Part shown: one piece after another, positions 790-29,492 of the stretch
How the letters are laid out: every line of letters starts with the position of its first letter
Position numbering within the stretch: the stretch's first letter is position 1
Made by a program: the position numbers and the translations under genes
Origin: Nonlabens ponticola
GTDB lineage: Bacteria; Bacteroidota; Bacteroidia; Flavobacteriales; Flavobacteriaceae
Assembly (NCBI RefSeq): GCF_003966335.1
Contig: NZ_CP034549.1
Location: 1,290,001-1,322,000, forward strand
Reading direction: 5' to 3'
Length of the DNA stretch: 32,000 bases
Notes under the pieces: generated by a model
Database searches by the model: none
What the model was told of the DNA's origin: nothing
The model's input: the letters and a program-made list of their open reading frames with translations, nothing else

Positions 790-1548
790 ATGTCTATGGT
801 AGAGAGGTTTGAGAGTATTACGCTTTCGCGAAAGCGTGTTCACCACATTCTACAAAACTTCAAAAAATCGTCTCAACAACTGGGCGACGACCGTAACGCG
901 ATTAGGATAGTGGAAGATAAAGGCAAAAAACTCGTTGTAAAGTCATTCAAGATTCCAAATGCCGTCAACAAATTGGCCTACCGATTTTTAAGAGATAGCA
1001 AGGCAAAAAGATCCTATGAAAATGCAGTCTATCTACAGCAACATAATATAGGAACCCCAGCACCACTGGCTTATCTAGAGCGTGTCGATACGTTGTCTTT
1101 TAAAGATAGTTATTACATAAGCGAGTACGCTGAGCATGATTATACCTATAGAGAATTGATCAACGATAATACTATAGAAAATAAGGAAGAAGTCCTGAAA
1201 GCCTTTACAGCTTTCATGTTCAAGATGCATGAGGCGCATATTTATTTCCTGGATCATTCACCTGGCAACACGTTAATCAAAAAAGTAGGAGATAGCTATG
1301 AGTTTTTCCTGGTGGATCTCAACCGCATGAAATTCTATGATATACCCTATGAAGATCGATTGAAAAACTTTGAACGCCTGTCACCTAAAAAATGGATGTA
1401 CGACATCATGGGTGCAGAGTATGCTAGACTTTCAGGAAAGGATCCAGCTGAATCTATTGCTACTATGTGGTCTTATACACAGAAGTTTCAAGAGAAATAT
1501 CATCGCAAGAAGCGATTCAAAAAAAAGCTCAAGAGTATATTCTCGTAA
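790..1548 (+). CDS. Lipopolysaccharide kinase (Kdo/WaaP/InaA) family protein
   Basis: 252-aa ORF with a kinase-like core (KKLVVKSFK ... IYFLDHSPGNTLI ... FFLVDLNRM), typical of Kdo/LPS-core kinases. It sits among LPS glycosyltransferases. Confidence 0.7.
   Translation: MSMVERFESITLSRKRVHHILQNFKKSSQQLGDDRNAIRIVEDKGKKLVVKSFKIPNAVNKLAYRFLRDSKAKRSYENAVYLQQHNIGTPAPLAYLERVDTLSFKDSYYISEYAEHDYTYRELINDNTIENKEEVLKAFTAFMFKMHEAHIYFLDHSPGNTLIKKVGDSYEFFLVDLNRMKFYDIPYEDRLKNFERLSPKKWMYDIMGAEYARLSGKDPAESIATMWSYTQKFQEKYHRKKRFKKKLKSIFS
817..836. repeat. Iterated palindrome copy 1 (ATTACGCTTTCGCGAAAGCG), inside the LPS-kinase gene
   Basis: Exact 16-nt palindrome at 821-836. Read in frame as I-T-L-S-R-K-R. Confidence 0.95.
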
Positions 1549-2316
1549 TTACTTGAGATTACGCCTGTACAACCACAGCTTTACATAGCGCATAAAAATC
1601 ATGTAACCGCGCAGGTAAGCAATTACAAAACCTACAAAACCATCCAAGAATCCACGTTGTAAAAAATAGTGTTTGAAGAATCCGTAAGTGGGCTTTATAA
1701 GCATATGAAAGGCTGTGATCTTACCTGTTTTCTTATCATAATCCTGTGCCTGTAGGCTGGCATATCGTTGTAGTTTCACAATATGCTTATCAATGTCGTT
1801 ATACTTGTAATGCAAGAATTTTTGATTTAGCGACTCTACGCGGCCATCGGTCACAATCTCTGCATGCACGTGTAGATCTAGGTAGCGACATTTTGATTTT
1901 TTGAAGAATCTAATGACTTTATCATTCTTCCAGCCGCTGTACCGTACTTGTTTGCCCATGAAAAAGTTGCGACGTCCTATCCAGAATCCGGCTAGGTCAT
2001 CATCATTTTCTTCTTCAAGTTTTTTAATGATTTCTTCCTGCAATGCTGGCGTCACGCGCTCATCTGCATCGACAAGTAGGATCCATTCATATTTTGATTG
2101 GGGTATGGCCCAGTTTTTCTGGCTGGCACTGTGTTCATACTCTCTTTGAAGAACGACGTCTACATAAGGTTGAGCAAGTTCAACGGTCCTGTCAGTGCTA
2201 AAGCTATCTACCAGCATCACTTCATCACAAAAGGAAACACCCTTCAAGACCTCTATAATATTGTGCTCCTCATTGTAACATGGGATTAAGGCTGTGATTG
2301 GGTATTTCTTCATCAA
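1549..2316 (-). CDS. Glycosyltransferase family 2 (LPS core, WaaE/KdtX-like)
   Basis: N-terminus ITALIPCYNEEHNI ... LVDSFSTDRT ... LLVDADERV is the GT2 Rossmann/DXD signature. Its stop directly abuts the stop of the convergent kinase gene. Confidence 0.85.
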   Translation of the reverse strand: MMKKYPITALIPCYNEEHNIIEVLKGVSFCDEVMLVDSFSTDRTVELAQPYVDVVLQREYEHSASQKNWAIPQSKYEWILLVDADERVTPALQEEIIKKLEEENDDDLAGFWIGRRNFFMGKQVRYSGWKNDKVIRFFKKSKCRYLDLHVHAEIVTDGRVESLNQKFLHYKYNDIDKHIVKLQRYASLQAQDYDKKTGKITAFHMLIKPTYGFFKHYFLQRGFLDGFVGFVIAYLRGYMIFMRYVKLWLYRRNLK

Positions 2317-2399
2317 AATCTAGCGTGCTTTCTGACAAAAATAGGCTGTAGGTTGGAAATGATGCAGGTATTGTGGACTTTTATAAAAAATTGTCCAAA

Positions 2400-3230
2400 A
2401 TGCCCAGAAAGCCTATCATCTCGTTGATTTTGAGTACTTATAATTCACTAGAATGGCTCAAAAAGACCTTATGGAGTTATGAGCATCAAATCTTTAGAGA
2501 GTTTGAGATCATCATTGCGGACGATGGTTCGGGAAATGAGACGATAGACTTTATTAAAGAGTACACTAGTCAAAGCGACCGTGTCATTAAACATGTGTGG
2601 CATGAGGATGATGGTTTTCAAAAAAGTAAAATTTTAAATAAAGCCATACTCGCCTGCGCAGCAGATTATGTGGTGATGAGTGATGGTGATTGTATCGCTA
2701 GAGAAGATTTTCTACAGATACATTATGAACGCAGAGAGCCAGGTTATTTTTTATCGGGCGGTTATTATAAATTACCACTAGAGTTGTCACAACTCATTAC
2801 CAAGGAGGACATTCTTACACAACGATGCTTTGACCTAGACTGGCTTCATTCTAAAGGTTTACCTGAGAGTTTTAAGAACAAAAAGCTATCAAGTGGTTTT
2901 GTGGAAGCAAGTGTTATGGAAGCAATAACGCCAACAAACGCTAGCTGGAATGGACATAATAGTAGTGGTTGGTTAAAAGACATCATCAAGGTAAATGGGT
3001 TTGATGAGCGCATGCAATATGGCGGTCAAGATCGTGAACTAGGCGAGCGACTTTACAACATCAAGATCAAGTCAAAGCAAATTAGATATAGTGCTGTTTG
3101 CTTGCATCTGGATCATTCTAGAGGATACAAAAACGAGGAAACGCTCAAGAAAAATAAAGCAATACGCAAGGCAACTCGCAAGGAGAAAAGACAATTTACT
3201 CCTCATGGAATTAACAAAGAAGTATCTTAA
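2400..3230 (+). CDS. Glycosyltransferase family 2
   Basis: MPRKPIISLILSTYNSLEWL ... IIIADDGS ... SDGDCI are GT2 motifs. The track ORF starts at GTG 2373. I prefer ATG 2400 because GT2 proteins normally begin a few residues before the (I/L)xxTYN strand. Confidence 0.8.
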   Translation: MPRKPIISLILSTYNSLEWLKKTLWSYEHQIFREFEIIIADDGSGNETIDFIKEYTSQSDRVIKHVWHEDDGFQKSKILNKAILACAADYVVMSDGDCIAREDFLQIHYERREPGYFLSGGYYKLPLELSQLITKEDILTQRCFDLDWLHSKGLPESFKNKKLSSGFVEASVMEAITPTNASWNGHNSSGWLKDIIKVNGFDERMQYGGQDRELGERLYNIKIKSKQIRYSAVCLHLDHSRGYKNEETLKKNKAIRKATRKEKRQFTPHGINKEVS

Positions 3231-4291
3231 TAATGATACTGTATGAATTGATCTAAGGATTTGATGATCAATCCAGCATCAAAATTTTGATACATTTCTA
3301 GACTGTTTGACTTGAATGCGGCTGGTTTTTTATCACCGTACAATTCTGGTTTCAAATCTTTGAGGTGGACTGATAGGTGTTGCTCACCATCTTCTGAAAT
3401 GTTCCATGCCTCTTGTGGTACCCATGGACTGTAGATAGAGAAACTAGGGATATCAAGTGCTTTGGCCATGTTTATGGCGCCACCTTCATTACCTATGATT
3501 GCTGTGCAGTTTGCCAACACTTTTAAGAAGTCTCGCAAGCTGGCTGTAAAATCATCTATTAAAATATGTTCACGAGTTTGTGGTTTGCACAGATGGTAGA
3601 TGGCAAACGCATCATCTTTTTGTGAAGGAATGTAGTTAAAGAAAATCTGTGTGTTGGTTTTCTCAACTAGATGATTTAACAATTGTGCCATGGTCGCAAA
3701 TGGCAAGGTTTTGACCTCACTGGATCCCAAAACGCTTATCATCGTAATCGATTTGTCTAGCTGCGCGCCACTTTGTTCTAACCACTGCTTCCCAGATTCT
3801 ACCTCGGTTTCAGTGAGATGTATGCGTGGCTTTACACTGTAGTCGATATCATCAGTAATTGGTTCCAGCAATCGCAAACGACTGCCTATGGCCCAACCAC
3901 TAGGGAACTGTTGCTTATCTGCCTGGTCACTTACCTTTTCTTGATAGGCAAGAAAACCAAACCATTTATCATATCCTATTTTGTGCTCTGCCTTGAGTAG
4001 TGAGCAAAGAAAGCCACTGTTATTTTTGCTATAAGCATCAAATATGTGCGTGTATTTATTGTTATTCAGCTTTCGCGAAAGCGTAATTATTCCAGCCAAA
4101 CTGCTAAATTCCTGTGGCTTGACAAGTATCAAATTGTCAATCGCTGGATGCCCTTGAACTACAGGAACAGCGTTGTGCACAATCAAGTAATCGACAATCG
4201 CATTAGGATTAGATCTTTTCAACTCGTCTGCAACCACGGTGCTGGTGAGCACGTCGCCTAGCATCTTATATTGAATAAGCAGAACGCGCAC
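3227..4291 (-). CDS. Glycosyltransferase family 9 (LPS heptosyltransferase-like)
   Basis: N-terminal RVLLIQYKMLGDVLTST and C-terminal IGNEGGAINMAKAL are GT9 hallmarks. The GTG start at 4291 overlaps the dapD stop by 1 nt. The stop overlaps the convergent GT2 stop (TTAA at 3227-3230). Confidence 0.8.
   Translation of the reverse strand: MRVLLIQYKMLGDVLTSTVVADELKRSNPNAIVDYLIVHNAVPVVQGHPAIDNLILVKPQEFSSLAGIITLSRKLNNNKYTHIFDAYSKNNSGFLCSLLKAEHKIGYDKWFGFLAYQEKVSDQADKQQFPSGWAIGSRLRLLEPITDDIDYSVKPRIHLTETEVESGKQWLEQSGAQLDKSITMISVLGSSEVKTLPFATMAQLLNHLVEKTNTQIFFNYIPSQKDDAFAIYHLCKPQTREHILIDDFTASLRDFLKVLANCTAIIGNEGGAINMAKALDIPSFSIYSPWVPQEAWNISEDGEQHLSVHLKDLKPELYGDKKPAAFKSNSLEMYQNFDAGLIIKSLDQFIQYHY
4069..4087. 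repeat. Iterated palindrome copy 2 (GCTTTCGCGAAAGCGTAAT), inside the GT9 gene
   Basis: Exact 14-nt core at 4069-4082. On the coding (minus) strand it reads I-T-L-S-R-K-L. Confidence 0.95.
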
Positions 4292-5106
4292 TAGACGGCT
4301 ACATCATATTCTCTCAAGGCATCGTTGAGTGAGGTTTTCTTATTAGTGCTTTCCTTGCGCGTTCCTATAATGAGCGCGCATGGTACGTTGTAGGTTCCGG
4401 CTGAGAATTCCTTGGCATAACTACCGGGAATAACTACCGATCGTGCAGGTACAACTCCTTTCATTTCTTTTGGCTTATCGCCGGTGACGTCAATAATTTT
4501 GGTACTTGCTGTTAGGACGACATTAGCACCTAGAACGGCTTCTTTCTCTACGCGTACACCTTCTACCACGATGCATCTAGAACCTATAAAAGCGTTGTCC
4601 TCAATGATTACCGGCGCAGCTTGTAGTGGCTCAAGAACACCACCTATACCAACGCCACCACTTAAGTGAACATTTGCACCTATTTGCGCACAACTACCTA
4701 CGGTTGCCCAAGTATCTACCATGGTACCTTCAGAAATATGAGCGCCTATGTTGACATAACTAGGCATCATGATCACACCTTTTGAAATATAAGCACCGTG
4801 TCTCGCCACAGCGTGCGGTACAACGCGTATCCCTTTTTCTTTATAACCAGTCTTGAGTGGTATTTTATCGTGAAATTCTAATGGGCCACATTCAATGGTC
4901 TCCATTTTCTGGATTGGGAAGTAGAGCACCACGGCTTTCTTGACCCATTCATTGACTTGCCATGAACCTTCAATAGGTTCTGCAACGCGCAGTTCACCTA
5001 GATCAAGTAAATTGACAACACTGCGTATAGCATTTTGAGTTACTGGATTTTCTAACATGGAGCGGTCGTCCCATGCGTTTTCTATGACATTCTTAAGTTG
5101 TTCCAA
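4291..5106 (-). CDS. dapD: 2,3,4,5-tetrahydropyridine-2,6-dicarboxylate N-succinyltransferase
   Basis: Near-colinear similarity to E. coli DapD over long blocks (MPSYVNIGA...EGTMVDTWATVGSCAQIG.NVHLSGGVGIGGVLEPLQA.P.IIEDN.FIG). Confidence 0.93.
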   Translation of the reverse strand: MEQLKNVIENAWDDRSMLENPVTQNAIRSVVNLLDLGELRVAEPIEGSWQVNEWVKKAVVLYFPIQKMETIECGPLEFHDKIPLKTGYKEKGIRVVPHAVARHGAYISKGVIMMPSYVNIGAHISEGTMVDTWATVGSCAQIGANVHLSGGVGIGGVLEPLQAAPVIIEDNAFIGSRCIVVEGVRVEKEAVLGANVVLTASTKIIDVTGDKPKEMKGVVPARSVVIPGSYAKEFSAGTYNVPCALIIGTRKESTNKKTSLNDALREYDVAV

Positions 5107-6796: not shown

Positions 6797-6831
6797 GCTT
6801 TCCTGCCTGTCCGGCAGGCAGGCGCGAAAGC
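6797..6831. repeat. Split copy of the GCTTTCGCGAAAGC palindrome carrying a nested GC-rich hairpin
   Basis: GCTTTC (6797-6802) + 21-nt insert CTGCCTGTCCGGCAGGCAGGC (6803-6823) + GCGAAAGC (6824-6831). The inner 8-bp stem is CCTGCCTG/CAGGCAGG. Located between convergent genes. Confidence 0.85.
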
Positions 6832-8045: not shown

Positions 8046-9516
8046 TGATAAGTTGCTCTAGGATTGTTCTTGTAGGCCCGTAGCTGGGACGATGAATATA
8101 GTCAGATTTTACGATCTCACCATCTTTATTGATTATCGTGTATGTTGGGAAACCTTCAATATTCAAGGCCTGCTGCATCCATACAGATTGTTCATCTTCT
8201 AGAAAATAGTGTACACCTTTAATCTCATATTGCGCGATGCTGGGTAAATACGTTTCTTTTCTGCTATTATGACATAGGTAAACAAAGTACACTTGATCTT
8301 GATAATCTGCATGCAGCTTTTTAGACGCATCTTTAAATTCCTGAATGCACGGCTGGCACCAGGTAGCCCAGTTATCTATGTAAATAACCTTACCATTTGC
8401 AGCCCTGATAAGATCATCAAGAAATGCGCTGGACGATTCGGCATTAAATTCTTCTATAATAGCCTCTTCTGGAAGTGCTGGATCTTCTAGTAATTTTTTG
8501 AGTTCATCATATCTATCAGCCAATTCCTCATAGAGCTGTTTTTCTTCAATAAAATCTTGAAGCTGCTCACGAGTATCTTCAAAGACCTTGAGGTCTTGAT
8601 CATCAAAGCTGCGCATGATTAATTTATGGGCGACATAGGAGTGAAGCAGTCGCCTGTCCTCATTGCTCAAAATAAGTTTAACTGCTTTGATGTCGTTTTG
8701 AGTTTTGTCAAATATGGGTTCTTCGGATCCTTGTACGGCCGCCCGCATAGGATAATGGTACGACAAATTGTAAATGAGCCTCGATACTAGATTTGTGTTG
8801 ACCAGATCATCATTTTCCAGCTCAGGAATATCAGCGACGAAATCAAAAAATGAATCGTCAGGATCTGGAGCTGGATAACCTCTATAATTTCTATAATTGA
8901 CATAATCGATGAGCGTTGCTGCTGCAAAGTACTTTTCTTCGGCGCTGGTGTATTTTTCAAAAAGCGGTGTGGTTTCCAACTCATTAAACTGCTTATTGTA
9001 CATGGCGACTGGTCGCTGATCTAACAAATATTGTTTAAGGTCCTGTGAGCCATTTTCTAGCTCAAGGTCATAGAACTCGTCAATGCCCAGAGACATTTCC
9101 TCGCGATAAGCTTTCAATAAACGATTCTCTTTAGAACGATCACCTTTAAATTCAATGCTGTTGGAATATTCTACTGGATTTATGTGATCCACAAAATTGA
9201 TATGAATGGAGTCGCCTGGAACGGCTATGATTGGCATGACATTATATGCGGTAATCATTACTTCTTGAGGCTGTTTGATGTCAACGATTGCTTTAAAAGA
9301 GCCATCAGTTTTTACCTTGATATCTTCTACCTGCATGCTTGCCGTAGTGTAATCATAAAACCGCAAGCTCACAGCATTTCCTGCGGTGCTATCAGTTACC
9401 GTGATCTTACCAGCAATAATTGTTTCTGCGTCAACGTCATACTCGATGGATTGATCTTCCACGCAAGATGAAAGCAGCAATACAAAACCTACAAGCAACA
9501 TTATTATTCTATTCAT
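8038..9516 (-). CDS. TlpA/ResA-family thiol-disulfide oxidoreductase lipoprotein with long N-terminal extension
   Basis: Leader LLVGFVLLLSSC. C-terminal thioredoxin fold with WATWCQPC (CxxC) and ...GFPTYTIINKDGEIV. About 370 aa of N-terminal region is uncharacterised. Confidence 0.8.
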   Translation of the reverse strand: MNRIIMLLVGFVLLLSSCVEDQSIEYDVDAETIIAGKITVTDSTAGNAVSLRFYDYTTASMQVEDIKVKTDGSFKAIVDIKQPQEVMITAYNVMPIIAVPGDSIHINFVDHINPVEYSNSIEFKGDRSKENRLLKAYREEMSLGIDEFYDLELENGSQDLKQYLLDQRPVAMYNKQFNELETTPLFEKYTSAEEKYFAAATLIDYVNYRNYRGYPAPDPDDSFFDFVADIPELENDDLVNTNLVSRLIYNLSYHYPMRAAVQGSEEPIFDKTQNDIKAVKLILSNEDRRLLHSYVAHKLIMRSFDDQDLKVFEDTREQLQDFIEEKQLYEELADRYDELKKLLEDPALPEEAIIEEFNAESSSAFLDDLIRAANGKVIYIDNWATWCQPCIQEFKDASKKLHADYQDQVYFVYLCHNSRKETYLPSIAQYEIKGVHYFLEDEQSVWMQQALNIEGFPTYTIINKDGEIVKSDYIHRPSYGPTRTILEQLINE

Positions 9517-10933
9517 TGCCTCTCAATTCTAGCATGACAACATTCTCGACATGGTGCGTTTGTGGGAACATATCTACCGGTTGTAGTTTTGTAATTTCAT
9601 ACTTCTCATCTAGTAACGCAAGATCACGTGCCTGTGTTGCACTGTTACAACTTACATATACTATGCGTTGCGCCGCAAGAACCAGTAGTTGGGCCACGAC
9701 ATCCTTATGCATACCATCACGCGGTGGATCTGTTATCACCACATCAGGTTTGCCGTGCGTCGCTATAAAGTCCTCATTGAAAACGTCTTTCATATCACCT
9801 ACATAAAAACTAGCGTTCTCTATATTATTATTACGAGCATTTTCTTGAGCATCTGCAATCGCCTGTGGTATAGACTCGATGCCTACTACTTTTTGAGCCT
9901 TTGCAGCAACGAATTGGGCGATGGTTCCCGTACCTGTATATAAATCATAAACCGTTTCATTGCCTGTAAGTCCTGCAAAATCTCTGGTGATGCGATAAAG
10001 TTCCAGCGCTTGTTGAGAGTTGGTCTGGTAAAAGGATTTGGCACTTATCTTGAATTTCAAATGTTCCATTTGCTCCATGATGTGATCCTCGCCGTCGTAT
10101 AAAATCACGTCTTGATCATAAATGGTGTCATTTGCCTTCTCATTGATGATATATTGCAGCGATTTTATCTCAGGAAATTGATTTTTGAGATGTTCCAGTA
10201 AGGCTATTCTATGCTGTTTATGATCTTCAAAAAACTGGATGACAACCATTACTTCGCCGGTCGACGCCATGCGCAACATCAACGTTCTCAAGGTACCGTG
10301 CTTTTCTCTTGGGTTGTAGTAGGATATCTGTTCCGCTTTCGCGAAAGCGTGCACACTTAAACGAATACGCTCACCAATAGCTGGGTGCAAGTGACATTCA
10401 TCCAGGTGCAAGATCTTGTCCCACATGCCAGGAATGTGAAAACCCAGTGCTTTTTTATCATCGATCTCAACGTCAGATTGTATTTCTTCTAGCGTCAACC
10501 AGCGATTTGCAGAAAAGCTGAATTCCATCTTATTGCGGTAATAGTATTGCTCACTACTACCAGCGATAGGAGTGATCTCTGGCAATTCAAGATGACCTAT
10601 GCGCGTGAGATTTTGCACCACTTCTTTTTCCTTGAAATATAACTGGCTCTCATAGGTCATGTGTTGCCACTTACAGCCGCCACAAGTGTCAAAATGCTTA
10701 CAAACGGGCGTCGTCCTGCGGTCTGACTTCTTGTGAAAGTTTGTGACCTTGCCCTCATAGAAGGATTTACGTTTTTTGAAGGTAGTTATGTCAACAACAT
10801 CTCCAGGAACGGCATCAGTTAGGAAAATGACTTCGCCAGCTTCTGTTTTGGCAACGCTTTTTCCTCGCGCACCAGCATCGACAACGGGTACATTTTCAAA
10901 TGTTTTTTGGGCTCTTCTTCTTCGTTTTGACAT
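9509..10933 (-). CDS. rlmD: 23S rRNA (uracil-C5)-methyltransferase RlmD/RumA family
   Basis: TRAM-like N-domain, Fe-S cysteine cluster CKHFDTCGGCKWQH, SAM motifs DLYTGTGT and DPPRDG, catalytic VYVSCN. The track start is 10999. I prefer ATG 10933 (MSKRRRRAQK...) because the extra 22 residues look non-conserved. Confidence 0.88.
   Translation of the reverse strand: MSKRRRRAQKTFENVPVVDAGARGKSVAKTEAGEVIFLTDAVPGDVVDITTFKKRKSFYEGKVTNFHKKSDRRTTPVCKHFDTCGGCKWQHMTYESQLYFKEKEVVQNLTRIGHLELPEITPIAGSSEQYYYRNKMEFSFSANRWLTLEEIQSDVEIDDKKALGFHIPGMWDKILHLDECHLHPAIGERIRLSVHAFAKAEQISYYNPREKHGTLRTLMLRMASTGEVMVVIQFFEDHKQHRIALLEHLKNQFPEIKSLQYIINEKANDTIYDQDVILYDGEDHIMEQMEHLKFKISAKSFYQTNSQQALELYRITRDFAGLTGNETVYDLYTGTGTIAQFVAAKAQKVVGIESIPQAIADAQENARNNNIENASFYVGDMKDVFNEDFIATHGKPDVVITDPPRDGMHKDVVAQLLVLAAQRIVYVSCNSATQARDLALLDEKYEITKLQPVDMFPQTHHVENVVMLELRGNE
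10329..10349. repeat. Iterated palindrome copy 4 (TGTTCCGCTTTCGCGAAAGCG), inside rlmD
   Basis: Exact 16-nt palindrome at 10334-10349. The coding strand reads A-F-A-K-A-E-Q. Confidence 0.95.
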
Positions 10934-11084
10934 AGAATGCAAAATTAAGCCAATCTGTAACAAATGCCGTTTGACAGGTGATAAAACTAGCAAGTTCATG
11001 ACTTAGCTGGTAACAGATTTTATCCCAGCTTTAAGGATAAGCAGCGACAAGGTTTTGTAAATTGCAATAAACTGAAATATTTAC

Positions 11085-15994: not shown

Positions 15995-16186
15995 ATGAAC
16001 GAAAACAATAAGCAGCTATTTAACGGTATTTTAATTATCGTTGGTGGTGCGTTACTCATTTATACTCTGACAGTTACCACGGCAAGCATCTATACTCAAA
16101 TCTTGGGTATCATCTTTCTCATGGTAGGTGCTTATCGCGCTAGTAAACATTGGTCTATTCATAAAAATGACCATCTAGATGAGTAA
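15995..16186 (+). CDS. Small two-TM membrane protein
   Basis: 63 aa with two hydrophobic helices (LFNGILIIVGGALLIYTL / ILGIIFLMVGAY). Its stop overlaps the ATG of the Smr gene (ATGAGTAA). Confidence 0.45.
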   Translation: MNENNKQLFNGILIIVGGALLIYTLTVTTASIYTQILGIIFLMVGAYRASKHWSIHKNDHLDE

Positions 16187-16709
16187 GTTCAAGAAAGGAG
16201 ATCAAGTGCTGGTAATTGACGATGATGTGAGTGGTGTGGTAGCTTTCGCGAAAGCGGAACAAGTAACCATCCTATCCACAGACGACATAGAGTTACAGTA
16301 TCATGAACAGGAATTGATACTAGATCAGCGTTTCAATGTCAAGGGCATCGTACCTATGAAAAAGGAAGTTGTTAAAAAATCAAAGCGCCGCATACAATCA
16401 CGTAAAAAAGCAGCGTTCATACCAGCGGTTGAGGTAGATCTACACATACACCAATTGACCGATAAATCGCAGTACATGGACAATTACGACATGCTCAACC
16501 TGCAAATCGACACCGCTAGAGATAAAATTGAATGGGCAAAAAGAGAACGAGTACCCAAACTCATTTTTATCCATGGAGTAGGTGAAGGCGTCCTAAAACA
16601 GGAACTAGAATTCCTGCTAGATCGCTATGAGTATCTCAAATACTATGATGCCGACTATCAAAAATACGGTCTAGGTGCTACCGAGGTTTACATCTATCAG
16701 AACAGCTAG
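16179..16709 (+). CDS. Smr (MutS2-related) domain protein
   Basis: C-terminal VEVDLHIHQL...KLIFIHGVGEGVLKQEL is the Smr-domain DLHG/HGxG pattern (here DLHI). Confidence 0.75.
   Translation: MSKFKKGDQVLVIDDDVSGVVAFAKAEQVTILSTDDIELQYHEQELILDQRFNVKGIVPMKKEVVKKSKRRIQSRKKAAFIPAVEVDLHIHQLTDKSQYMDNYDMLNLQIDTARDKIEWAKRERVPKLIFIHGVGEGVLKQELEFLLDRYEYLKYYDADYQKYGLGATEVYIYQNS
16242..16261. repeat. Iterated palindrome copy 5 (GCTTTCGCGAAAGCGGAACA), inside the Smr gene
   Basis: Exact 14-nt core at 16242-16255. Reads A-F-A-K-A-E-Q. Identical over 20 nt to the reverse complement of copy 4. Confidence 0.95.
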
Positions 16710-18933: not shown

Positions 18934-21414
18934 TCAGAACCTCATCGCCAGCCTGAAATTAAGAACTCGTGGCGTCAAAAAATTAGGTATAGCTATCTGG
19001 CGTGAATTGGCGATGTCGCGTACCCATATATTAGTAATGCTATTTTGGTTGTCGAACATGTTGTACAGCTCAACGCCTATAAATACTTCATCAAATTTTG
19101 AGAAGGTACGGCTGTCATTCTGCGCATCCTTGAATACATAATTGATACCCACATCCGCACGACGATAATCTCGCAGTCGGAATTGGAAGTCATAAGGATC
19201 TGCATAATTGGGTGAGCCACCAGGTAATCCAGTATTATAAACAAGGTTCAAGTACATGCGCACTTGAGGTATGTTGGGCACATAATCCTGAAAAAGCATT
19301 GCAAATTTTAATCGCTGGTCTGTAGGTCTAGAGATAAAGCCGCGATCGTTTAGGTTTTCCTCAGTTTTAAGATAACCAGCAGATATCCAACTTTCCGTGC
19401 CTTTGATGAATTCACCATTTAAGCGTAGATCGGCTCCATAAGCGTAGGCAGTCGCCTCATTGTTTGCACGATAGCGTATGCGTACATTTTCTAATGTGTA
19501 TGTGTTGACGTCGCTTAAATTTTTATAATAAGCCTCGCTCGTCAACTTAAAAGGTCTATCATTCCAGCTAAAACTCCAGTCATTACCCAGTACAAGGTGA
19601 AAGGATTGCTGTGCCTTAACATCTGGCACAACGGCTCCATTTTCATCGCGCAATTCTCTATAAAAAGGTGGTTGGTGATAAATACCTGTCGATAGCCTAA
19701 AGAGCATGTCCGTATTTGCCCAATCCGGTTTGATAGCAAACTGACCACGCGGCGAGAATACCGTTTGGGTAACACTCTCGATGCCATCACCACTTACATT
19801 CCAGGTATGTGTACGAGCTCCTAGATTCCAGAATATCTCATGATCACCTAGATAACCGCGACTGCTGTATTGCGCAAAGGCTTGTAATCGTTGTATGTCC
19901 ACATCATTATCGGCTCTAATACTAGTAAAAGGCACCAGCGGCGCGCTAAATGGTGTGTAGGGTTCATCATTGCGCAAGTCTGCAAATGGTGGTCGCACGC
20001 TAAAACCAGCACTGTCAATCACCGTGTATTCTCTCACACGATCGCGTATATTCTCCACATTGACTTTAACGCCCCATTCCAGCAGATCGCTCTCCTTTTT
20101 GCCATCGTCAAATACATAAGTACCTCGATGCTCAACAGTCCCTATAAGTGCATCAAGATCATTGCGACCATGCTCTAATTCTGATCCTATTCCTGTGACA
20201 AAATCTACCTCACCTAGATCGTCGCTACCTATATCGGTATTAGGCCTGCCCAATCCATATCTGGCTAGAATGTCATAATGCTCTTGCTCTTGAGTCAAAT
20301 AAACGCTACTGATAAACCTCAAATTAAGCTGTTCACTTACATCATAACTAGCCTTGAGCGCTCCAAAATAAGTTTCATACTGGTCTTCTTCCTGTCCATC
20401 ATAATTAATGACCACTGCCTGTGGTTCTTGTACGGTACCAAAGTTTGTCTGTCGATCTTCTGGTTCAAAATCATAACTGTTGACAGCAATGTTTCCCAAA
20501 AAATCCAGCTGAAACTTTGGTGTGATCTGGTAGGTCAAATAGGCTTGCGCATCAAAGAATCGCGGCACGGCGTTGGCCTGTGTTTCTCTTGAGTTGATAA
20601 ATAGACTGTTGTCCCTATAGCGCAGTCCGACAATGGCTGTTAACGCTTTCGCGAAAGCGGTACCCTCTACAAACGCACTTGCACCCAATAAGCTGGCGTC
20701 TATACCAGCGCCAAAATCTGTAGGGCGTCTATAATCAATATTCAAGACGCTACTCAATTTATCGCCATATTTTGCCTGGAAACCACCTGCTGAAAAATCT
20801 ACCGAACGCACCAAATCAGAATTTACCACACTCAAACCTTCCTGTTGACCGCTGCGTATCAAGAATGGACGATATACCTCGATCTCATTAATATAAATCA
20901 AGTTCTCGTCATAATTACCGCCACGCACTGCATACTGCGTGCTTAATTCATTATTGTTATTCACGCCAGGTAAGGAAAGAAGGATGTTCTCAATACCTGG
21001 CTGCGCGCCTGGAATACGTCTTAAAAGTTCTGGTTCAATAGTGGTAATACCTCTAAATTCTCTAGTATTTCTATTAGTAATGACAACCTCTGCAAATTGC
21101 TCAACATTCACATCAAGCACTGGGTTGAATTCAAAAATCTCACCTGGCTTCAAACGCAAGTCTTTAATGACAACAGGTTTAAAATTGATGCTGGTAAACC
21201 TTATTTCTAGTGATTGATTTGATGGCACTTGTAATTGATAGAAACCAGTGGCATTACTTGCAGTTCCCGTGCTTGAATCGTTGGCTAGTGAGATATTTAC
21301 ATTAGCAATAGGTTGCTGATCCTTATTGAGTACAACACCTTGAAACGTAGCAGTTTGCGCCAGACTTGCTTGAATTAAAAATAAAGGTAATAGGAGTAAA
21401 AGTAAATTTCTCAA
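18934..21414 (-). CDS. TonB-dependent receptor with N-terminal carboxypeptidase-regulatory-like domain
   Basis: Signal peptide, a CarboxypepD_reg-like beta-sandwich (FQGVVLNKDQQPIANVNISL...TGFYQLQV), a plug domain (VRGGNYDENLIYINEIEVY) and a terminal aromatic residue (...LAMRF). Confidence 0.88.
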   Translation of the reverse strand: MRNLLLLLLPLFLIQASLAQTATFQGVVLNKDQQPIANVNISLANDSSTGTASNATGFYQLQVPSNQSLEIRFTSINFKPVVIKDLRLKPGEIFEFNPVLDVNVEQFAEVVITNRNTREFRGITTIEPELLRRIPGAQPGIENILLSLPGVNNNNELSTQYAVRGGNYDENLIYINEIEVYRPFLIRSGQQEGLSVVNSDLVRSVDFSAGGFQAKYGDKLSSVLNIDYRRPTDFGAGIDASLLGASAFVEGTAFAKALTAIVGLRYRDNSLFINSRETQANAVPRFFDAQAYLTYQITPKFQLDFLGNIAVNSYDFEPEDRQTNFGTVQEPQAVVINYDGQEEDQYETYFGALKASYDVSEQLNLRFISSVYLTQEQEHYDILARYGLGRPNTDIGSDDLGEVDFVTGIGSELEHGRNDLDALIGTVEHRGTYVFDDGKKESDLLEWGVKVNVENIRDRVREYTVIDSAGFSVRPPFADLRNDEPYTPFSAPLVPFTSIRADNDVDIQRLQAFAQYSSRGYLGDHEIFWNLGARTHTWNVSGDGIESVTQTVFSPRGQFAIKPDWANTDMLFRLSTGIYHQPPFYRELRDENGAVVPDVKAQQSFHLVLGNDWSFSWNDRPFKLTSEAYYKNLSDVNTYTLENVRIRYRANNEATAYAYGADLRLNGEFIKGTESWISAGYLKTEENLNDRGFISRPTDQRLKFAMLFQDYVPNIPQVRMYLNLVYNTGLPGGSPNYADPYDFQFRLRDYRRADVGINYVFKDAQNDSRTFSKFDEVFIGVELYNMFDNQNSITNIWVRDIANSRQIAIPNFLTPRVLNFRLAMRF
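20644..20659. repeat. Iterated palindrome copy 6 (CGCTTTCGCGAAAGCG), inside the TonB-dependent receptor gene
   Basis: Exact 16-nt palindrome. The coding strand reads T-A-F-A-K-A-L. Confidence 0.95.
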
Positions 21415-21423: not shown

Positions 21424-23163
21424 TTAACTCTTTCGGTTGAATGTGGCCTCAAATTTAGTGCTATTTCCCACATTATCTGTAACGATGACCTTGAGTTCAT
21501 TATTGCTGTCGGTCACTACGCCATCGGCAAAATCGTGTGTCAAACTATTAGTCTTATAGTCATATTCCATCAAGATGAATTTGCCATTTACCGTAGCTCG
21601 GTAGCCGTCAATACCAGAGTCTTTATCGTCAATAGATAATTTAAGCGTTTTATTCTTGCTTATCCATTGACCATCTTTAAAATTGATTGTTTTAATGGTG
21701 GGCGCCTCGGTATCTTTTCTCACGCTATAAGTTCCCAAAGTTCTGGTGTAAGCGGTCAAGGTATTTCCCTTGAGTTTTGACCGCACGTGATACGCAGCGC
21801 CCCATGATGTGATTCTTGCGAGGTAGTATTTGCTCATGTCATCACCTTTCTTGCTATTCATATCATACGATATGATCATGTTTTTATGCAACGGTATCAC
21901 ATCGTGATGAATCTTGAGCGTGTCGGTATGTTGTTTGATGTTAAGCAAGGCGTCTTCATATAAACTACCTGTTGGTATGGTAAGGTCAAATGCTCCTAGG
22001 GTCTTAGTGAAGGTTTGTTGTGCAGGCACATAAGTAGCGTCACCGGCGTCTACCATTTCAATTTCTGTAGCTTCTTCATTGTAAATGTCCAGCAGCAGGA
22101 CGCTTTCATTACCCTTGAAATCTTGGATTTCTGCCTTGAATTGATGCGTTGTCCCAGGATCAACTAGCGTTAGTTTACCATTGTCGATAGTCTTGCCATA
22201 CAAACTTAAGGGACTGCCGTCAGGAACGTAGAATTTGGAAATTCTGCTCTTGGAATTTTTGAAATGTTCATAATCAATCATTTGATTGATGTATCGTGTC
22301 TCGGCAAATGTGTATTTGTCAAACGTCATTTCAAAATTCTTCTTACCGTTGAAATACGTATTGACATGATAGATCCCATTCTGGTTATTAGCCGCATCTA
22401 GTCGATCGTTGGTATTGACACCTATACCTATTTTTCCATATGCGCTAAATTTCTCAGTCTTGAACTTGCCATCTTTTAGAGGAATCACGCGCAATAATTT
22501 ACTCTCATGTTTGCCATTTATAGTCGCATCATCACTCAATGGATATGCTTTGACTTGCTTAACAAGAGGTCTTCTAGAATCTGCCACATCAATCCCAAAC
22601 ATAAATGGATTCATGGGTCTGGCGCTGCTGTCGCGTATTTCAAAATGTAAATGCGGGCCACCACTGCCACCAGTATTACCGCTATAGGCAACTACTTCAC
22701 CTTTATCCACGCGCAAGTCCAGATCATCAGGATATAATTGGATGGTATAACTCTCCGCAGCATATTGTTTTTTCTTGAGGTATTCTTCAATGCGTGGTGA
22801 GAAGTTCTTTAAATGCGCATAAACTGTTGTGTAGCCGTTAGGATGCGTTATATAAAGTGCCTTACCATAGCCGTAGTGTTCAATCTTGATACGACTCACA
22901 TATCCAGAAGCTGCTGCGTACACTTTGGCACCAGTGCGTTGGTTTGTTTTAATGTCTAGACCGCTATGAAAGTGATTGGAACGCAACTCACCAAAGGTTC
23001 CGCTTAATTTGAGCTCTATATCAAGAGGATGCTGGAAATAATCCTGTGGTAGATTTTGTATAGTTTGGCTTTCGCCGAAGCGTAACATAAAAAAAGCAAG
23101 GAAAACAAATAGGAAGTATCGTGACTGCATGACTAAATATAGAGCGTGAATAATGGATGACAA
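21424..23163 (-). CDS. M23 family metallopeptidase
   Basis: HFHSGLDIKT and GGPHLHFEIRD zinc-ligand motifs. The alternative start at 23130 (MQSRYFLFVFLAFFML...) gives a cleaner signal peptide. Confidence 0.88.
   Translation of the reverse strand: MSSIIHALYLVMQSRYFLFVFLAFFMLRFGESQTIQNLPQDYFQHPLDIELKLSGTFGELRSNHFHSGLDIKTNQRTGAKVYAAASGYVSRIKIEHYGYGKALYITHPNGYTTVYAHLKNFSPRIEEYLKKKQYAAESYTIQLYPDDLDLRVDKGEVVAYSGNTGGSGGPHLHFEIRDSSARPMNPFMFGIDVADSRRPLVKQVKAYPLSDDATINGKHESKLLRVIPLKDGKFKTEKFSAYGKIGIGVNTNDRLDAANNQNGIYHVNTYFNGKKNFEMTFDKYTFAETRYINQMIDYEHFKNSKSRISKFYVPDGSPLSLYGKTIDNGKLTLVDPGTTHQFKAEIQDFKGNESVLLLDIYNEEATEIEMVDAGDATYVPAQQTFTKTLGAFDLTIPTGSLYEDALLNIKQHTDTLKIHHDVIPLHKNMIISYDMNSKKGDDMSKYYLARITSWGAAYHVRSKLKGNTLTAYTRTLGTYSVRKDTEAPTIKTINFKDGQWISKNKTLKLSIDDKDSGIDGYRATVNGKFILMEYDYKTNSLTHDFADGVVTDSNNELKVIVTDNVGNSTKFEATFNRKS
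23068..23085. repeat. Degenerate palindrome copy (GCTTTCGCCGAAGCGTAA), in the signal-peptide codons of the M23 peptidase
   Basis: Two mismatches to the core. On the coding strand TTACGCTTCGGCGAAAGC reads L-R-F-G-E-S, the third reading frame of the motif. Confidence 0.6.
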
Positions 23164-23534: not shown

Positions 23535-23538
23535 TATC

Positions 23539-23849: not shown

Positions 23850-24018
23850 CTACCTGCACTTGTTTCATTTTTTGGTGAACTCAACACATAATTCTTTAAA
23901 AAAGGTGAGTCGTGGTTGTAAAAGCAAGCCGGCCTAGAGCCGGATCCTTGATCAGCCAGTTAGCCTTAAACTTTATTTAAGGAGTTCATACAAAACCCTA
24001 ACTCGTGCAGGTTTTTTT
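23850..24018 (+). ncRNA. Candidate structured small RNA, 6S-like (6S-Flavo-type) between zapA and rny
   Basis: ORF-free segment. Long-range closing helix ACCTGCAC (23852-23859) / GTGCAGGT (24005-24012) followed by T7. Nested helices are TGAACTC (23876-82)/GAGTTCA (23982-88), TGGTTG (23913-18)/CAGCCA (23953-58), CAAG/CTTG, and apical CCGGC-CTAGA-GCCGG (23929-43). The overall shape is a rod with internal loops. Confidence 0.45.
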
Positions 24019-25606: not shown

Positions 25607-25631
25607 TCACAGGACTTAAAATTATAGAACT

Positions 25632-25871: not shown

Positions 25872-25892
25872 ATACTCAGTATTGTACGAATT

Positions 25893-26840: not shown

Positions 26841-26860
26841 GAATTTTTTTTGACAAGTTA

Positions 26861-26879
26861 GCTTTCGCGAAAGCGTAAT
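26861..26879. repeat. Iterated palindrome copy 7 (GCTTTCGCGAAAGCGTAAT), intergenic
   Basis: Exact 14-nt core at 26861-26874. Lies 21 nt upstream of the reductase ATG (26840) and 100 nt downstream of the xerD stop, both on the minus strand. Confidence 0.95.
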
Positions 26880-26978
26880 CCCAATAATCCACCACCGTTT
26901 GACATAATTTTAATAGCAAATCAAAATGCAGGTTAACAGGTGAGCATCGCTATTCTGACTAATATTGTAAGAAACTAA

Positions 26979-27884
26979 TCACTCAAACGTGTTGCGAGGA
27001 TGGTGTTTTTGCAGCATTTCATGAAGGTAGGCGCGATCCATGTGTACATATATCTCAGTCGTTGTGATACTCTCATGACCTAGCATGAGTTGGATTGAGC
27101 GCAGGTCGGCGCCATTCTCTAATAAGTGTGTGGCAAATGAATGCCTGAATGTATGCGGGCTTACTTTTTTCTTGATTCCAGCCGTACGCTTTAGGTCTTT
27201 TACAATGGTAAAAATCATGGCTCTGGTAAGACCCGTGCCGCGACGATTCAAGAAAACCGTATCAGTATGTTGCGGTTGGATAGGTAAGTGTACGCGTACC
27301 TGATTCAAATAATCGTCCATAATTTTTATGGTGGAGGCTCCTATAGGTACAAAACGCTGTTTGTCACCTTTACCGGTTACTTTGATAAAACCATCTGGAA
27401 AAACCAGGTCGCTGATCTTGAGGTTAATCAATTCAGACACTCGCAGGCCGCAACTGTATAGCGTTTCTAGAATCACACGATTGCGCTCGCCATGAGCCGT
27501 AGATCGATCGATGGCGGCAATAAGTTGATCAATTTCTTGTGTACTCAAGGTATCTGGCAGCTTGCGTCCTAATCTGGGCGATTGAATAAGCTCCATAGGA
27601 TCGTCCTCTCTATAATCTTCTAGCATCAAGTAATTAAACAAACCTTTTAAACTGCTGATAGCGCGTGCTTGAGAACGTGGACTCACCGTTGCGGCTAGAT
27701 GATGAATAAATAGAATAAGCCCATCATGTTTAATGGTTTTGGGATCGTATCCAGATTCCTGTTGATCAATCCATTCTATGAATTTCTCAAGATCACGCCG
27801 GTAGGCAGCGATGGTATTTGCAGCCATACCGCGCTCTAATTGCAAGTAGATTTTATAGTCTGTGAGCGCTTGTTGCCAGGTCAT
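26979..27884 (-). CDS. xerD: Site-specific tyrosine recombinase XerD
   Basis: Full RHRY catalytic set in Xer-like context (ETLYSCGLRVSEL ... HTFRHSFATHLLENGADLRSIQLMLGHESITTTEIYVH). Housekeeping size (301 aa). Confidence 0.88.
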   Translation of the reverse strand: MTWQQALTDYKIYLQLERGMAANTIAAYRRDLEKFIEWIDQQESGYDPKTIKHDGLILFIHHLAATVSPRSQARAISSLKGLFNYLMLEDYREDDPMELIQSPRLGRKLPDTLSTQEIDQLIAAIDRSTAHGERNRVILETLYSCGLRVSELINLKISDLVFPDGFIKVTGKGDKQRFVPIGASTIKIMDDYLNQVRVHLPIQPQHTDTVFLNRRGTGLTRAMIFTIVKDLKRTAGIKKKVSPHTFRHSFATHLLENGADLRSIQLMLGHESITTTEIYVHMDRAYLHEMLQKHHPRNTFE

Positions 27885-28014
27885 GTTAAATGAGAACTAG
27901 CGTGAATTTACAATATGTCCACGCTAGATTCCTAATATTTCAAATCGTTAAAAATCATGTAAATTCTATCTGCAATCTTAGCGAATTTTTGGGATTGTGA
28001 TATTGTCGAGTGAA

Positions 28015-28022
28015 TAATTTTG
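28015..28022 (+). promoter_or_regulatory. Bacteroidota -7 promoter box (TAATTTTG)
   Basis: Exact TAnnTTTG match 21 nt upstream of the ATG at 28044. Confidence 0.4.
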
Positions 28023-28043
28023 CCGCAAATAAACATTCAAATT

Positions 28044-28643
28044 ATGAAAAAAGTATTTGTAACAGTAGCAATCGCTTTAGGTTTTATTTCAACGAGTATA
28101 GCTCAGGAAATTGACTTTGGAGTTCAGGTAGGGGCAAATTTTGCAAAATTATCTGGTGAAGATATTGAAGATGCAGATGGTCGTACAGGATTCAATGTGG
28201 GAATCACCGGTGAGGTTCAAACGTCTCAACAATTTGGAATTCTAGTGGGTGCGATTTACTCGCAGCAAGGACTTGATGGTGAGGTTTTTGGAGAAGAAGC
28301 TACCTTAAAGCTGGACTATATCAATGTTCCTGTGTTGGCAAAGTTTTATTTAGGAGGTTCAGGTCTGGCTCTCGAGGCAGGACCACAAATTGGTTTCCTT
28401 GTCAATGATGAAATCGAAGTTAATGGAACTGATTTTGATCAATCCATATTTGAAGCTCAAAATATCGACTTTAGTGCTGGTGGTGGCATGTCATACAAGT
28501 TTAAGGAAGGTACCACACTTGAAGGTCTTGCCTTTGGAGCACGTTATATGATTGGTCTAAATAATGTTTATGAAGACAACGAGACCTTTGATGATGATGT
28601 AACAAACTCGGTTCTTTCAATCAATTTAGGATACAAGTTCTAA
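28044..28643 (+). CDS. Outer-membrane beta-barrel (porin-family, OMP_b-brl_2-like) protein, paralog A
   Basis: Signal peptide MKKVFVTVAIALGFISTSIAQ, alternating strands and a terminal ...INLGYKF. The track start TTG 28020 is replaced by ATG 28044. Confidence 0.75.
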   Translation: MKKVFVTVAIALGFISTSIAQEIDFGVQVGANFAKLSGEDIEDADGRTGFNVGITGEVQTSQQFGILVGAIYSQQGLDGEVFGEEATLKLDYINVPVLAKFYLGGSGLALEAGPQIGFLVNDEIEVNGTDFDQSIFEAQNIDFSAGGGMSYKFKEGTTLEGLAFGARYMIGLNNVYEDNETFDDDVTNSVLSINLGYKF

Positions 28644-28666
28644 CAACTGAAATCAAACTTTTTATT

Positions 28667-28696
28667 AAAGCCGCTCTTCTAGAGCGGCTTTTTTTA
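28667..28696 (+). terminator. Rho-independent terminator
   Basis: AAAGCCGCTCT-TCT-AGAGCGGCTTT followed by a T-run. Confidence 0.8.
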
Positions 28697-28848
28697 TCAT
28701 TTGATAATTCTATTTGAGCTTTGAAAGAAGTTCAGCTTTTTGTAGCTAATTCATTGAGAATAGATGTAAGATATTCTTAATAGTATTGTAAACCGTAGTG
28801 AAAGATTTTTGTAAAATGATCATATTGCAACTTTAAACTTTATAAGTC

Positions 28849-29448
28849 ATGCGTGTTACTATTCTACTTTCCGTTTTGTTTATTTCATCTCTTTGCCATG
28901 CTCAATTGTCTGGTGATGTGACTGTGACGCCATTTATAGGTATTTCTAATAGTGTATTTGCCTCGAGCGCTGATGTTGATTACAAGTCACAACAAGGAAT
29001 ATCTGCAGGTATTACGGGTAATTACTTCCTGTCAGAAAGTTGGAGTTTGAGAACAGGAGTAATGTACACTTCTATGGGTGGTGAAGAAAAGGCCACTGGA
29101 CGCGAGGAGCGATTGGGATACATTGCTGTTCCTGTAAACATTAGTTTGCACGTCACTAAATACAAGGATTTATCATTCAACTTTGGACCTATGTTTCTTT
29201 TTAACACTGCCTCTGAAGAAATGAGGAGTGACAACAATGAAGTAGAACAAGACTTTATCACTAACGATTACGATTTTGGTGTCAATCTTGGAGTAGGTTA
29301 TCGCATACCTCTTGACGATAGGTTTGATTTATATTTTGACGCCCAAGGTTATGCTGGGTTTATTGATGTTTATGATAATGTCAATGAATTGTTTGAGGTG
29401 CGCAATTTTGCTGTAGCAGTGCATGTTGGCACCCGTATAAAATTATAA
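28849..29448 (+). CDS. Outer-membrane beta-barrel protein, paralog B
   Basis: Signal peptide MRVTILLSVLFISSLCHAQ. Shares SWSLRTGVMYTSMGG / YIAVPVN / GVGYRIPL blocks with paralog C. Confidence 0.75.
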   Translation: MRVTILLSVLFISSLCHAQLSGDVTVTPFIGISNSVFASSADVDYKSQQGISAGITGNYFLSESWSLRTGVMYTSMGGEEKATGREERLGYIAVPVNISLHVTKYKDLSFNFGPMFLFNTASEEMRSDNNEVEQDFITNDYDFGVNLGVGYRIPLDDRFDLYFDAQGYAGFIDVYDNVNELFEVRNFAVAVHVGTRIKL

Positions 29449-29468
29449 CTAAGCACGCGATTTTGCTG

Positions 29469-29492
29469 ATTACGCTTTCGCGAAAGCGTAAT
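29469..29492. repeat. Iterated palindrome copy 8, full 24-nt perfect palindrome ATTACGCTTTCGCGAAAGCGTAAT, intergenic
   Basis: Perfect 24-nt inverted repeat, 21 nt after the stop of OMP paralog B and 74 nt before the ATG of paralog C. Confidence 0.95.

Follow-up and report, generated by a model that had tools for sequence, protein, structure and literature searches.

A long, highly iterated perfect palindrome in Nonlabens and Dokdonia, probably a lineage-specific signature motif of the uptake-sequence/HIP1 kind

The 32,000-nt stretch of the Nonlabens ponticola genome analyzed here (contig NZ_CP034549.1, positions 1,290,001 to 1,322,000 of the forward strand; below, "the window", with positions counted from its first nucleotide) contains seven exact copies of the 14-nt palindrome GCTTTCGCGAAAGC, against ca. 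1e-5 to 1e-4 expected; they start at positions 822, 4069, 10335, 16242, 20645, 26861 and 29474. It is very probable that this palindrome is a lineage-specific motif of the type represented by uptake signal sequences (USS) of Pasteurellaceae, DNA uptake sequences (DUS) of Neisseriaceae and the highly iterated palindrome HIP1, kept under constraint at the level of DNA, and not a mobile element; within this class, we judge it to be an unusually long, palindromic variant. A first-pass annotation made from the nucleotide sequence alone had likened the palindrome to HIP1 and uptake sequences rather than to repetitive extragenic palindromes (REP) or miniature inverted-repeat transposable elements (MITEs). 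That view is upheld by the analysis below: the copies are substitutions and not insertions, most of them lie inside genes and show a reading-frame bias, orthologous sites are conserved, and the motif belongs to one lineage.

A motif search recovered all seven positions listed in the first-pass annotation together with a relic carrying two mismatches, GCTTTCGCCGAAGC, at position 23068, which that annotation had also reported; there are no copies with a single mismatch in the window. Dinucleotide shuffles of the window lead one to expect 0.07 matches at two or fewer mismatches. An order-5 Markov model predicts 1.6e-5 exact copies when the copies are masked during training and 0.03 when they are not, against seven observed, which places the frequency in the window far outside the k-mer expectation. 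Across models of order 0 to 5, the over-representation of GCTTTCGCGAAAGC is at least 1e5-fold.

A collection holding one genome per species (185,579 species) was scanned for GCTTTCGCGAAAGC, and at least 120 stretches matched. Among the 120 matches listed, about 80 come from Nonlabens, Dokdonia, strain BBFL7 or uncultured Flavobacteriaceae, often with two to three copies per 8 kb, and the remaining stretches are single matches scattered over phyla, as chance predicts. On the 3.37-Mb chromosome of Dokdonia sp. R86516, the matches listed are far apart, at 0.88, 1.38, 2.15 and 2.82 Mb. Density was taken from seven syntenic loci (the window and loci L121 to L126, 160.6 kb in all) that were not picked for the motif. 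They contain 30 exact copies, i.e., one per 5.35 kb, where 1e-4 to 5e-4 copies are expected, and extrapolation from one copy per 5.3 kb gives a load of ca. 550-750 copies per genome. Nonlabens and Dokdonia carry the motif in abundance throughout, and among the matches listed it is confined to them and to close uncultured relatives. It was also seen, at lower apparent density, in other contigs labelled as Flavobacteriaceae, namely uncultured Aquimarina (L110:157 and 1090, two copies 933 bp apart; L071:7055), Leeuwenhoekiella (L112, L030) and Altibacter (L107); either the range may be wider than the two genera or these contig labels may be wrong. In the searched literature, no paper contains the 14-mer or its 12-nt centre, the 10-nt centre occurs solely in an unrelated study of absent words, and genome papers on Nonlabens and Dokdonia do not mention the palindrome, which appears not to have been described before. 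To our knowledge, no hyperabundant signature motif has been described for Bacteroidota.

The origin of the copies can be seen from alignments with orthologues that lack them. In RlmD, the motif encodes the peptide AFAKA, which has DFANA, NFANE or KFALD as its gap-free counterpart in other genera. Codon alignments of ruvX (AFAGE, GCT TTT GCT GGC GAG, versus AFAKA, GCT TTC GCG AAA GCG) and of the GT9 heptosyltransferase gene (TLAQKL, ACA CTT GCC CAA AAA CTC, versus TLSRKL, ACG CTT TCG CGA AAG CTG) contain no insertions or deletions. Point substitutions, amino-acid-changing ones among them, have created the copies where they stand.

Orthologous sites were then compared among the syntenic genomes. 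The rlmD site is exact in five of the seven, has one mismatch in BBFL7 and is absent from L126. The smr site is exact in three genomes, one mismatch off in two and two mismatches off in one, and the site in the TonB-dependent receptor gene is exact in three (BBFL7 and L124 among them) with two mismatches in L126. The GT9 site is exact in four, with orthologous copies in N. dokdonensis, L124 and L125, and absent from BBFL7, which has ACTTGCCCAAAAAC (TLAQKL) instead; the ruvX site is exact in three genomes and unrecognizable in three. The flanks of orthologous sites share only 66-80% identity, and synonymous third positions of rlmD outside the motif, at 41-57% identity, are essentially saturated, while the orthologous copies there are 100% identical. 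Sites are all-or-none, being perfect, near-perfect or at least four mismatches away, as one expects of a sequence that is subject, at the DNA level, to strong selection or drive with a recognition threshold. We conclude that a force acting at the level of DNA, be it selection or molecular drive, keeps the copies letter-perfect.

The anatomy of the motif was established from an alignment of 150-162 copies drawn from the window and the flavobacterial loci. The consensus, TGATTAC-GCTTTCGCGAAAGC-GTAATCA (by columns, T-G-A-T-T-[A/C]-C, core, G-[T/G]-A-A-T-C-A), loses information outward, and the nucleotides preceding the core are genus-specific ([G/T/A]TAC in Dokdonia, TT[C/A/T]C in Nonlabens). Complementarity between the flanks exceeds the expectation from column frequencies at positions ±1 and ±2 only; in the window, the perfect symmetry of individual copies ranges from 14 nt up to 24 nt. 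Exact copies dominate the mismatch spectrum: there are 151 of them, against 13 copies with one mismatch and 15 with two. Outside full copies, the 7-nt half-sites are found at expectation (12 versus 14 expected) and solitary GCGAAAGC, the mini-hairpin word of each strand, shows no meaningful enrichment. The alternative compact arrangement GCGAAAGCTTTCGC has 0 occurrences. Since half-sites are at expectation and GCGAAAGCTTTCGC is absent, the selected unit is the complete dyad, neither the half-site nor the GCGAAAGC mini-hairpin alone. Conversion of half-sites into palindromes via template switching was considered and rejected, solitary half-sites being neither depleted nor enriched. The earlier statement that the copies belong to no longer shared element needs correction: no homology extends past ca. 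28 bp, but the copies do share this weak extended consensus and a compositional flank signature that is described below.

Wholly within open reading frames (ORFs) lie 69% of the 162 copies, ORFs making up 88% of the DNA, and the density of copies is 3.3-fold higher in non-coding DNA. Reading frames of the coding copies are biased (AFAKA 60, FRES 20, LSRK 20). Coding copies lean to the 5′ third of genes (Kolmogorov-Smirnov (KS) p = 0.012, a figure inflated by start-codon uncertainty). Intergenic copies are distributed over tandem, divergent and convergent spacers as 31:10:8, matching the background of 246:87:56. The spacing of copies is more even than random. In the window, the intervals between the seven exact copies have a coefficient of variation (CV) of 0.33 (p = 0.008); for nine sites, i.e., with a split copy (see below) and the relic included, the CV is 0.32 (p = 0.0016) and the minimum gap is 2.4 kb (p = 0.0003). 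In 43 independent 8-kb blocks with at least two copies, there is no gap below 856 bp, and minimum gaps exceed those of uniform placement (KS p = 2.7e-5). Thus, the copies repel each other along the chromosome. They had been called not regularly spaced, which is correct as far as a fixed period is concerned but overlooks this evenness.

Each strand carries a characteristic composition around the core. On the 5′ side, C accounts for only 9% of the nucleotides and G and T prevail; on the 3′ side, it is G that is scarce (9-12%), and A and C are abundant. The skew extends over no more than ca. 30 nt and is greatest at a distance of 11-20 nt, with GC skew values of about ±0.5; TGT, GTG, TTGT, TGTG and GGTT are the enriched flank words. 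Coding and non-coding copies alike show the skew, which is strongest at third codon positions, yet shifts amino-acid use. At five orthologous sites without the motif the skew is weaker, a trend (n = 5) that points to a consequence of the motif or to co-evolution with it rather than to a pre-existing context. The symmetric flank signature of ca. 30 nt and the genus-specific flank preferences are new with the present analysis; the skew stands apart from the other features, is unexplained and may be the trace of a single-stranded intermediate.

USS and DUS arise by mutation and recombination and not by insertion, have a more even spacing than chance would give, lie in ORFs with a frame bias (65% of USS) and leave a peptide imprint (Findlay and Redfield, PMC2817400). 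The palindrome resembles them in each of these respects, its own alignments with and without the motif being gap-free and about two-thirds of its copies lying in ORFs, where they are under-represented. Further points of likeness are conservation at orthologous sites with some turnover, lineage-specific "dialects" and over-representation by hundreds-fold or more, the value for the palindrome lying beyond the at least 200-fold that marks such sequences. It differs from them in the mirror-symmetric C-poor and G-poor flanks and in its host, which belongs to Bacteroidota. HIP1 (GCGATCGC) is likewise a hyperabundant palindrome found in genes and spacers, non-randomly spaced and conserved across genomes beyond codon usage (PMC5861425, PMC4390886), and the palindrome, too, is hyperabundant and conserved at orthologous sites within and between ORFs. 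The function of both has long been unknown, and HIP1 is now tied to transformation: it was reported to boost transformation and was proposed to be an uptake or Chi-like signal (bioRxiv 10.1101/2024.09.10.611283; 10.64898/2026.06.24.733823). The two sequences are unrelated, the palindrome is nearly twice as long and 5-15 times less dense, and HIP1 is phylum-wide while the palindrome, among the matches listed, is found in two genera. HIP1 also has cognate orphan methyltransferases (GATC, CGATCG), whereas TCGCGA and CGCG, which are internal to the palindrome, are unskewed outside it.

By analogy with these systems, we tentatively propose, as a role that falls short of being probable, that the palindrome is a self-DNA tag in DNA uptake or recombination. 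Copies arise by point substitution wherever the local protein or spacer tolerates the motif. Their reader would be a sequence-specific, twofold-symmetric factor, or else a hairpin formed on both strands would be recognized, and the motif would mark resident ("self") DNA for a step of uptake or homologous recombination. Motif-bearing alleles, being preferentially taken up, protected or recombined, would spread, as USS and DUS accumulate and as is now proposed for HIP1. The C-poor 5′ and G-poor 3′ flanks, G/T-rich on the strand entering the site, may keep a hairpin in single-stranded DNA (ssDNA) free of competing pairings or, alternatively, may favour loading of a single-strand-binding recombination protein. 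Natural competence with a preference for own DNA is known in Riemerella columbina, another member of the class Flavobacteriia, in which no uptake sequence was found with k of up to 10 (PMC7965970).

Several points weigh against a self-DNA tag. The searched papers report no competence in Nonlabens or Dokdonia, and the window genes are silent on competence, uptake bias or a receptor, with no competence machinery or receptor (e.g., ComP, ComEC or DprA) among them. Known uptake sequences have non-palindromic, asymmetric cores of 9-12 nt, as opposed to a perfect dyad of 14-24 bp with unenriched half-sites, and such a dyad suits a dimeric duplex-binding protein at least equally. The strand-specific flank skew is not predicted by an uptake model, and conservation is unable to separate selection for a cellular function from drive. 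Phage sequences do not give a uniform answer. The lytic Nonlabens phage P12024S (L245, 35.7 kb) has 0 copies at two or fewer mismatches versus 6.7 expected at the host density (P = 0.0013), but two prophage-like IMG/VR stretches, L215 (1-12060, with portal, prohead protease and capsid genes) and L179 (1-11283), carry three copies each with host-like flanks and spacing. Because these prophage-like stretches carry the motif, the argument that it is absent from foreign DNA rests on one lytic phage. Temperate resident elements apparently acquire or keep the motif and the virulent phage does not. In the prophage-like stretches, the palindrome is also found inside structural genes.

Among other explanations, the one that fares best is that the copies are binding sites of a dimeric nucleoid-associated or chromosome-organizing protein, with sites every few kb selected for folding, segregation or occlusion, as in the pairs Noc and Noc-binding sites (NBS), SlmA and SlmA-binding sites (SBS), and MatP and matS. 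We regard this as possible, if on the unlikely side. It would account for the perfect dyad with its unenriched half-sites, for information that fades outward over ca. 28 bp in the manner of a footprint, for genus-specific flank preferences that are symmetric on both sides of the site, and for even spacing over whole chromosomes. Complementarity at ±2 above column frequencies is also what one expects of a protein co-evolving with its site, and a chromosome-organizing role was argued for HIP1 by Xu, Lawrence and Durand (PMC5861425). On the other hand, ca. 550-750 sites per genome are roughly ten-fold above the counts known for NBS, SBS and matS, no candidate protein was identified, and, with the skew extending 30 nt to either side, the footprint would measure ca. 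74 bp, a large one for a helix-turn-helix dimer of simple type. Sites of ParB and Noc, parS and NBS, have the consensus TGTTNCACGTGAAACA or ATTTCCCGGGAAAT and are present in few copies, origin-proximal or excluded from Ter. The palindrome shares with them the format of a perfect dyad of 14-16 bp and the TTTC...GAAA architecture, and NBS are also scattered through genes. When compared by eye with these consensus sequences, however, its half-site register is one base off and the bases differ, so that the palindrome is not of the parS/NBS family; among the matches listed, it is also chromosome-wide and not clustered near the origin.

The second alternative is a signal read in single strands: the GCGAAAGC mini-hairpin, or a longer hairpin with a 5-11-bp stem, would form on both strands and be recognized in ssDNA during replication, restart or recombination, for example as a barrier to exonucleases or as a landing site for primase or PriA that excludes single-strand-binding protein (SSB), or it would be recognized in RNA, whichever strand is transcribed. 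Only two arrangements place GCGAAAGC on both strands in the most compact form, and the 14-mer is one of them. The first-pass annotation had named d(GCGAAAGC) as an exceptionally thermostable mini-hairpin, and rightly so: its melting temperature is 76.5 °C, a stability that standard parameters do not capture (Kimoto and Hirao, PMC13037366). Such mini-hairpins are exonuclease-resistant and are found at the phage G4 origin, at ssiA and at phage N4 promoters (PMC13037366). The mirror-symmetric, strand-specific flank skew and its weakness at orthologous sites without the motif (n = 5) also fit a single-strand signal. In addition, with the real outer flanks in place the core hairpin is predicted to form with a probability of 0.52 instead of 0.41 under RNA parameters and of 0.68 instead of 0.61 under DNA parameters (p < 0.001), a gain that vanishes when flanks are swapped. 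This predicted effect is the main hint that the single-stranded form may matter.

The further claim of the first-pass annotation, that single strands would fold at every copy, was not borne out: the nearest-neighbour energy of the 14-mer alone is ca. -2 kcal/mol with z near 0, although such models miss mini-hairpins. An extended hairpin was considered and rejected, since there is no register-specific complementarity past ±2 and exchanging the real flanks for re-paired or distant ones leaves the total folding energy the same. Against a single-strand signal, several copies have weak predicted hairpins of -3 to -5 kcal/mol (z about -1); a signal on one strand needs no full dyad, and solitary GCGAAAGC is unenriched with GCGAAAGCTTTCGC missing; there are no compensatory stem variants, so that the exact sequence and not the pairing is conserved; and copies have no Rfam match, no T-run and intergenic contexts that equal background. 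A single-strand signal is, overall, doubtful.

One specific version, equally doubtful, is a chromosome-wide, strand-symmetric signal in which the mini-hairpin on both strands, insulated by C-free 5′ and G-free 3′ flanks, would fold when single-stranded and would be read as a structural, Chi-like signal that stops exonucleases and loads recombinase, or as a site of priming or restart from which SSB is excluded. Chi sites are 5-8 nt long, asymmetric and strongly strand-skewed with replication. The palindrome is comparable in its density of about one per 5 kb, its location within genes, the G/T-rich strand entering the site and a possible role as a mark of resident DNA for recombinational repair, but as a dyad it has no orientation. 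If a hairpin self-mark of this kind were real, transforming or broken DNA with the motif would survive and recombine preferentially. We know of no description of such a hairpin-based mark of self DNA.

A third possibility, which we consider improbable, is that the palindrome is a by-product of a methyltransferase, of restriction or of biased repair, as in Elhai's model of HIP1, where methylation-directed repair at TCGCGA or CGCG would convert near-matches. The core does contain CGCG and TCGCGA, all-or-none orthologous sites suit a conversion process, and the abundance of HIP1 tracks orphan methyltransferases (PMC4390886). Outside the palindromes, however, TCGCGA is at expectation (23 versus 21.8) and CGCG near it (287 versus 236); the internal sites therefore show neither avoidance nor clear excess, and on the same counts a link to restriction sites was rejected. 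A specificity of 14-22 bp is also far above that known for short-patch repair or type II recognition, and long-term conservation at orthologous sites argues for maintenance over continual regeneration.

A mobile or mobile-derived repeat, be it a minimal MITE of two abutted terminal inverted repeats, a REP sequence with its RAYT or an excision footprint, is scarcely credible. Like REP/BIME sequences, MITEs and Rickettsia palindromic elements, the palindrome is short and present in many copies; one copy bears a nested insertion (6797-6831), and the TTAC flank resembles the target sequence of IS608. Those elements are insertions and mostly extragenic, though, while coding copies of the palindrome have the same length as, and residues in common with, motif-free orthologues, so nothing was inserted. 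Most copies are intragenic, the flank differs between genera, and there are neither target-site duplications nor shared sequence past ca. 28 bp; a comparison of the window with 120 motif-bearing loci found no similarity outside the motif. Together with the gap-free protein and codon alignments, these data contradict a mobile element. Transcription terminators or operators of a global regulator can be dismissed with similar firmness: ca. 31% of copies are intergenic and several lie 20-40 nt before start codons (26861, 29474), but most are intragenic, their spacer contexts are those of background, there is no T-run, and a terminator scan calls other hairpins and not the palindromes. A search against the covariance models of Rfam 15 found no family at any copy, even at E of up to 1. 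The methylation, mobile-element and terminator/operator models, together with explanations not listed here, jointly retain a modest minority of the probability.

Hyperabundant signature motifs such as USS, DUS, HIP1 and Chi are rare, and each opened a view on self and foreign DNA or on chromosome organization. The palindrome would be by far the longest of them, and a perfectly palindromic one, and the pressure behind it suffices to alter the amino-acid sequence of housekeeping proteins (RlmD, RuvX, heptosyltransferase). Given its length and exactness, a reader protein should be catchable with a 28-mer bait, and the narrow range of two genera should make the cognate gene findable by genome comparison. 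If the palindrome is an uptake or recombination signal, natural transformation is predicted in abundant marine flavobacteria, and the motif would offer a practical handle for engineering Nonlabens and Dokdonia.

In the window, the first-pass annotation had assigned five copies to genes and three to spacers, and this assignment stands. The copy at 820-837 (core 822-835) is an 18-nt perfect palindrome, ACGC...GCGT, that occupies codons 11-16 (TLSRKR) of a Kdo/WaaP-like kinase ORF (790-1548, plus strand), and the copy at 4069-4082 reads TLSRKL in the GT9 heptosyltransferase ORF (3227-4291, minus strand). Three further copies read AFAKA: the one at 10334-10349 in rlmD (9509-10999, minus strand), the one at 16242-16255, which forms codons 22-26 of the Smr-domain ORF (16179-16709, plus strand) and has orthologous copies, exact or one to two mismatches off, in five other genomes, and the one at 20644-20659, codons 253-257 of the TonB-dependent receptor ORF (18934-21414, minus strand). 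The two-mismatch relic (23068-23081) is close to the 5′ end of an M23 peptidase ORF (21424-23163, minus strand). Of the intergenic copies, the exact one at 26861-26874 lies 20 nt before the start codon of an aldo/keto reductase gene and 104 nt past a xerD-like gene, and is without a T-run and not called by the terminator scan. The other exact one, the 24-nt perfect palindrome ATTACGCTTTCGCGAAAGCGTAAT (29469-29492), is the longest in the window and lies between two outer-membrane protein (OMP) beta-barrel genes. These belong to a set of three tandem paralogous OMP beta-barrel (OMP_b-brl_2) genes at 28020-30174, with the palindrome in the spacer of the second and third.

The split copy at 6797-6831, GCTTTC[CTGCCTGTCCGGCAGGCAGGC]GCGAAAGC, is located in a convergent spacer past a DUF6048 gene. 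It is a real interrupted eighth copy, as first noted, and in N. antarcticus (L121:14117) an intact copy is present at the same position, 13-16 nt past the DUF6048 stop codon. The insert, at the centre of the palindrome, is a 21-nt GC-rich hairpin, CCTGCCTG-TCCGG-CAGGCAGG (6802-6822). Hairpins of the same family, CCTGCCTG...CAGGCAGG with variable loops, were also observed at L046:5107, L047:4131, L039:3176 and L007:2906 and 3277, and those of L046 and L047 are bordered by apparent palindrome remnants (…CCGCT | insert | AAAGCG…); this GC-rich hairpin element may favour the palindrome centre as its point of insertion or breakage. Split copies as a common class were rejected, the sole other indel variant in 813 kb being a single-base insertion at the centre-right of the copy at L041:4985 (GCTTTCGCG-A-AAAGC).

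The remaining genes of the window are ordinary housekeeping and envelope genes, including those for lipopolysaccharide-core glycosyltransferases, dapD, ruvX, def, aminotransferases, a type IX secretion system substrate, RNase Y and aroQ besides the genes named above, and no annotated gene in the window points to a partner for the palindrome. The RlmD encoded in the window shares 100% identity with RlmD of N. ponticola. In the seven syntenic loci, TTCGAA is strongly avoided (6 versus 52 expected) and TCGA, CCGG and GGCC are under-represented, which suggests restriction-modification pressure, e.g., of the AsuII/BstBI type; GCGAAGC, a mini-hairpin word of 7 nt, is rare as well, counted together with its complement (1 versus ca. 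9 expected). Two strong hairpins in the window look like canonical terminators, illustrate the form that true terminators take in this genome and are unlike the palindrome: AAAGCCGCTC…GAGCGGCTTT followed by a T-run at 28667-28691, and AAAAGCCCTTTTTGA… at 30674-30707, which is called on both strands and is perhaps bidirectional. A 6S-Flavo RNA gene (Rfam RF01685, 99.3 bits) is present at 23879-23987 on the plus strand, directly upstream of the RNase Y gene.

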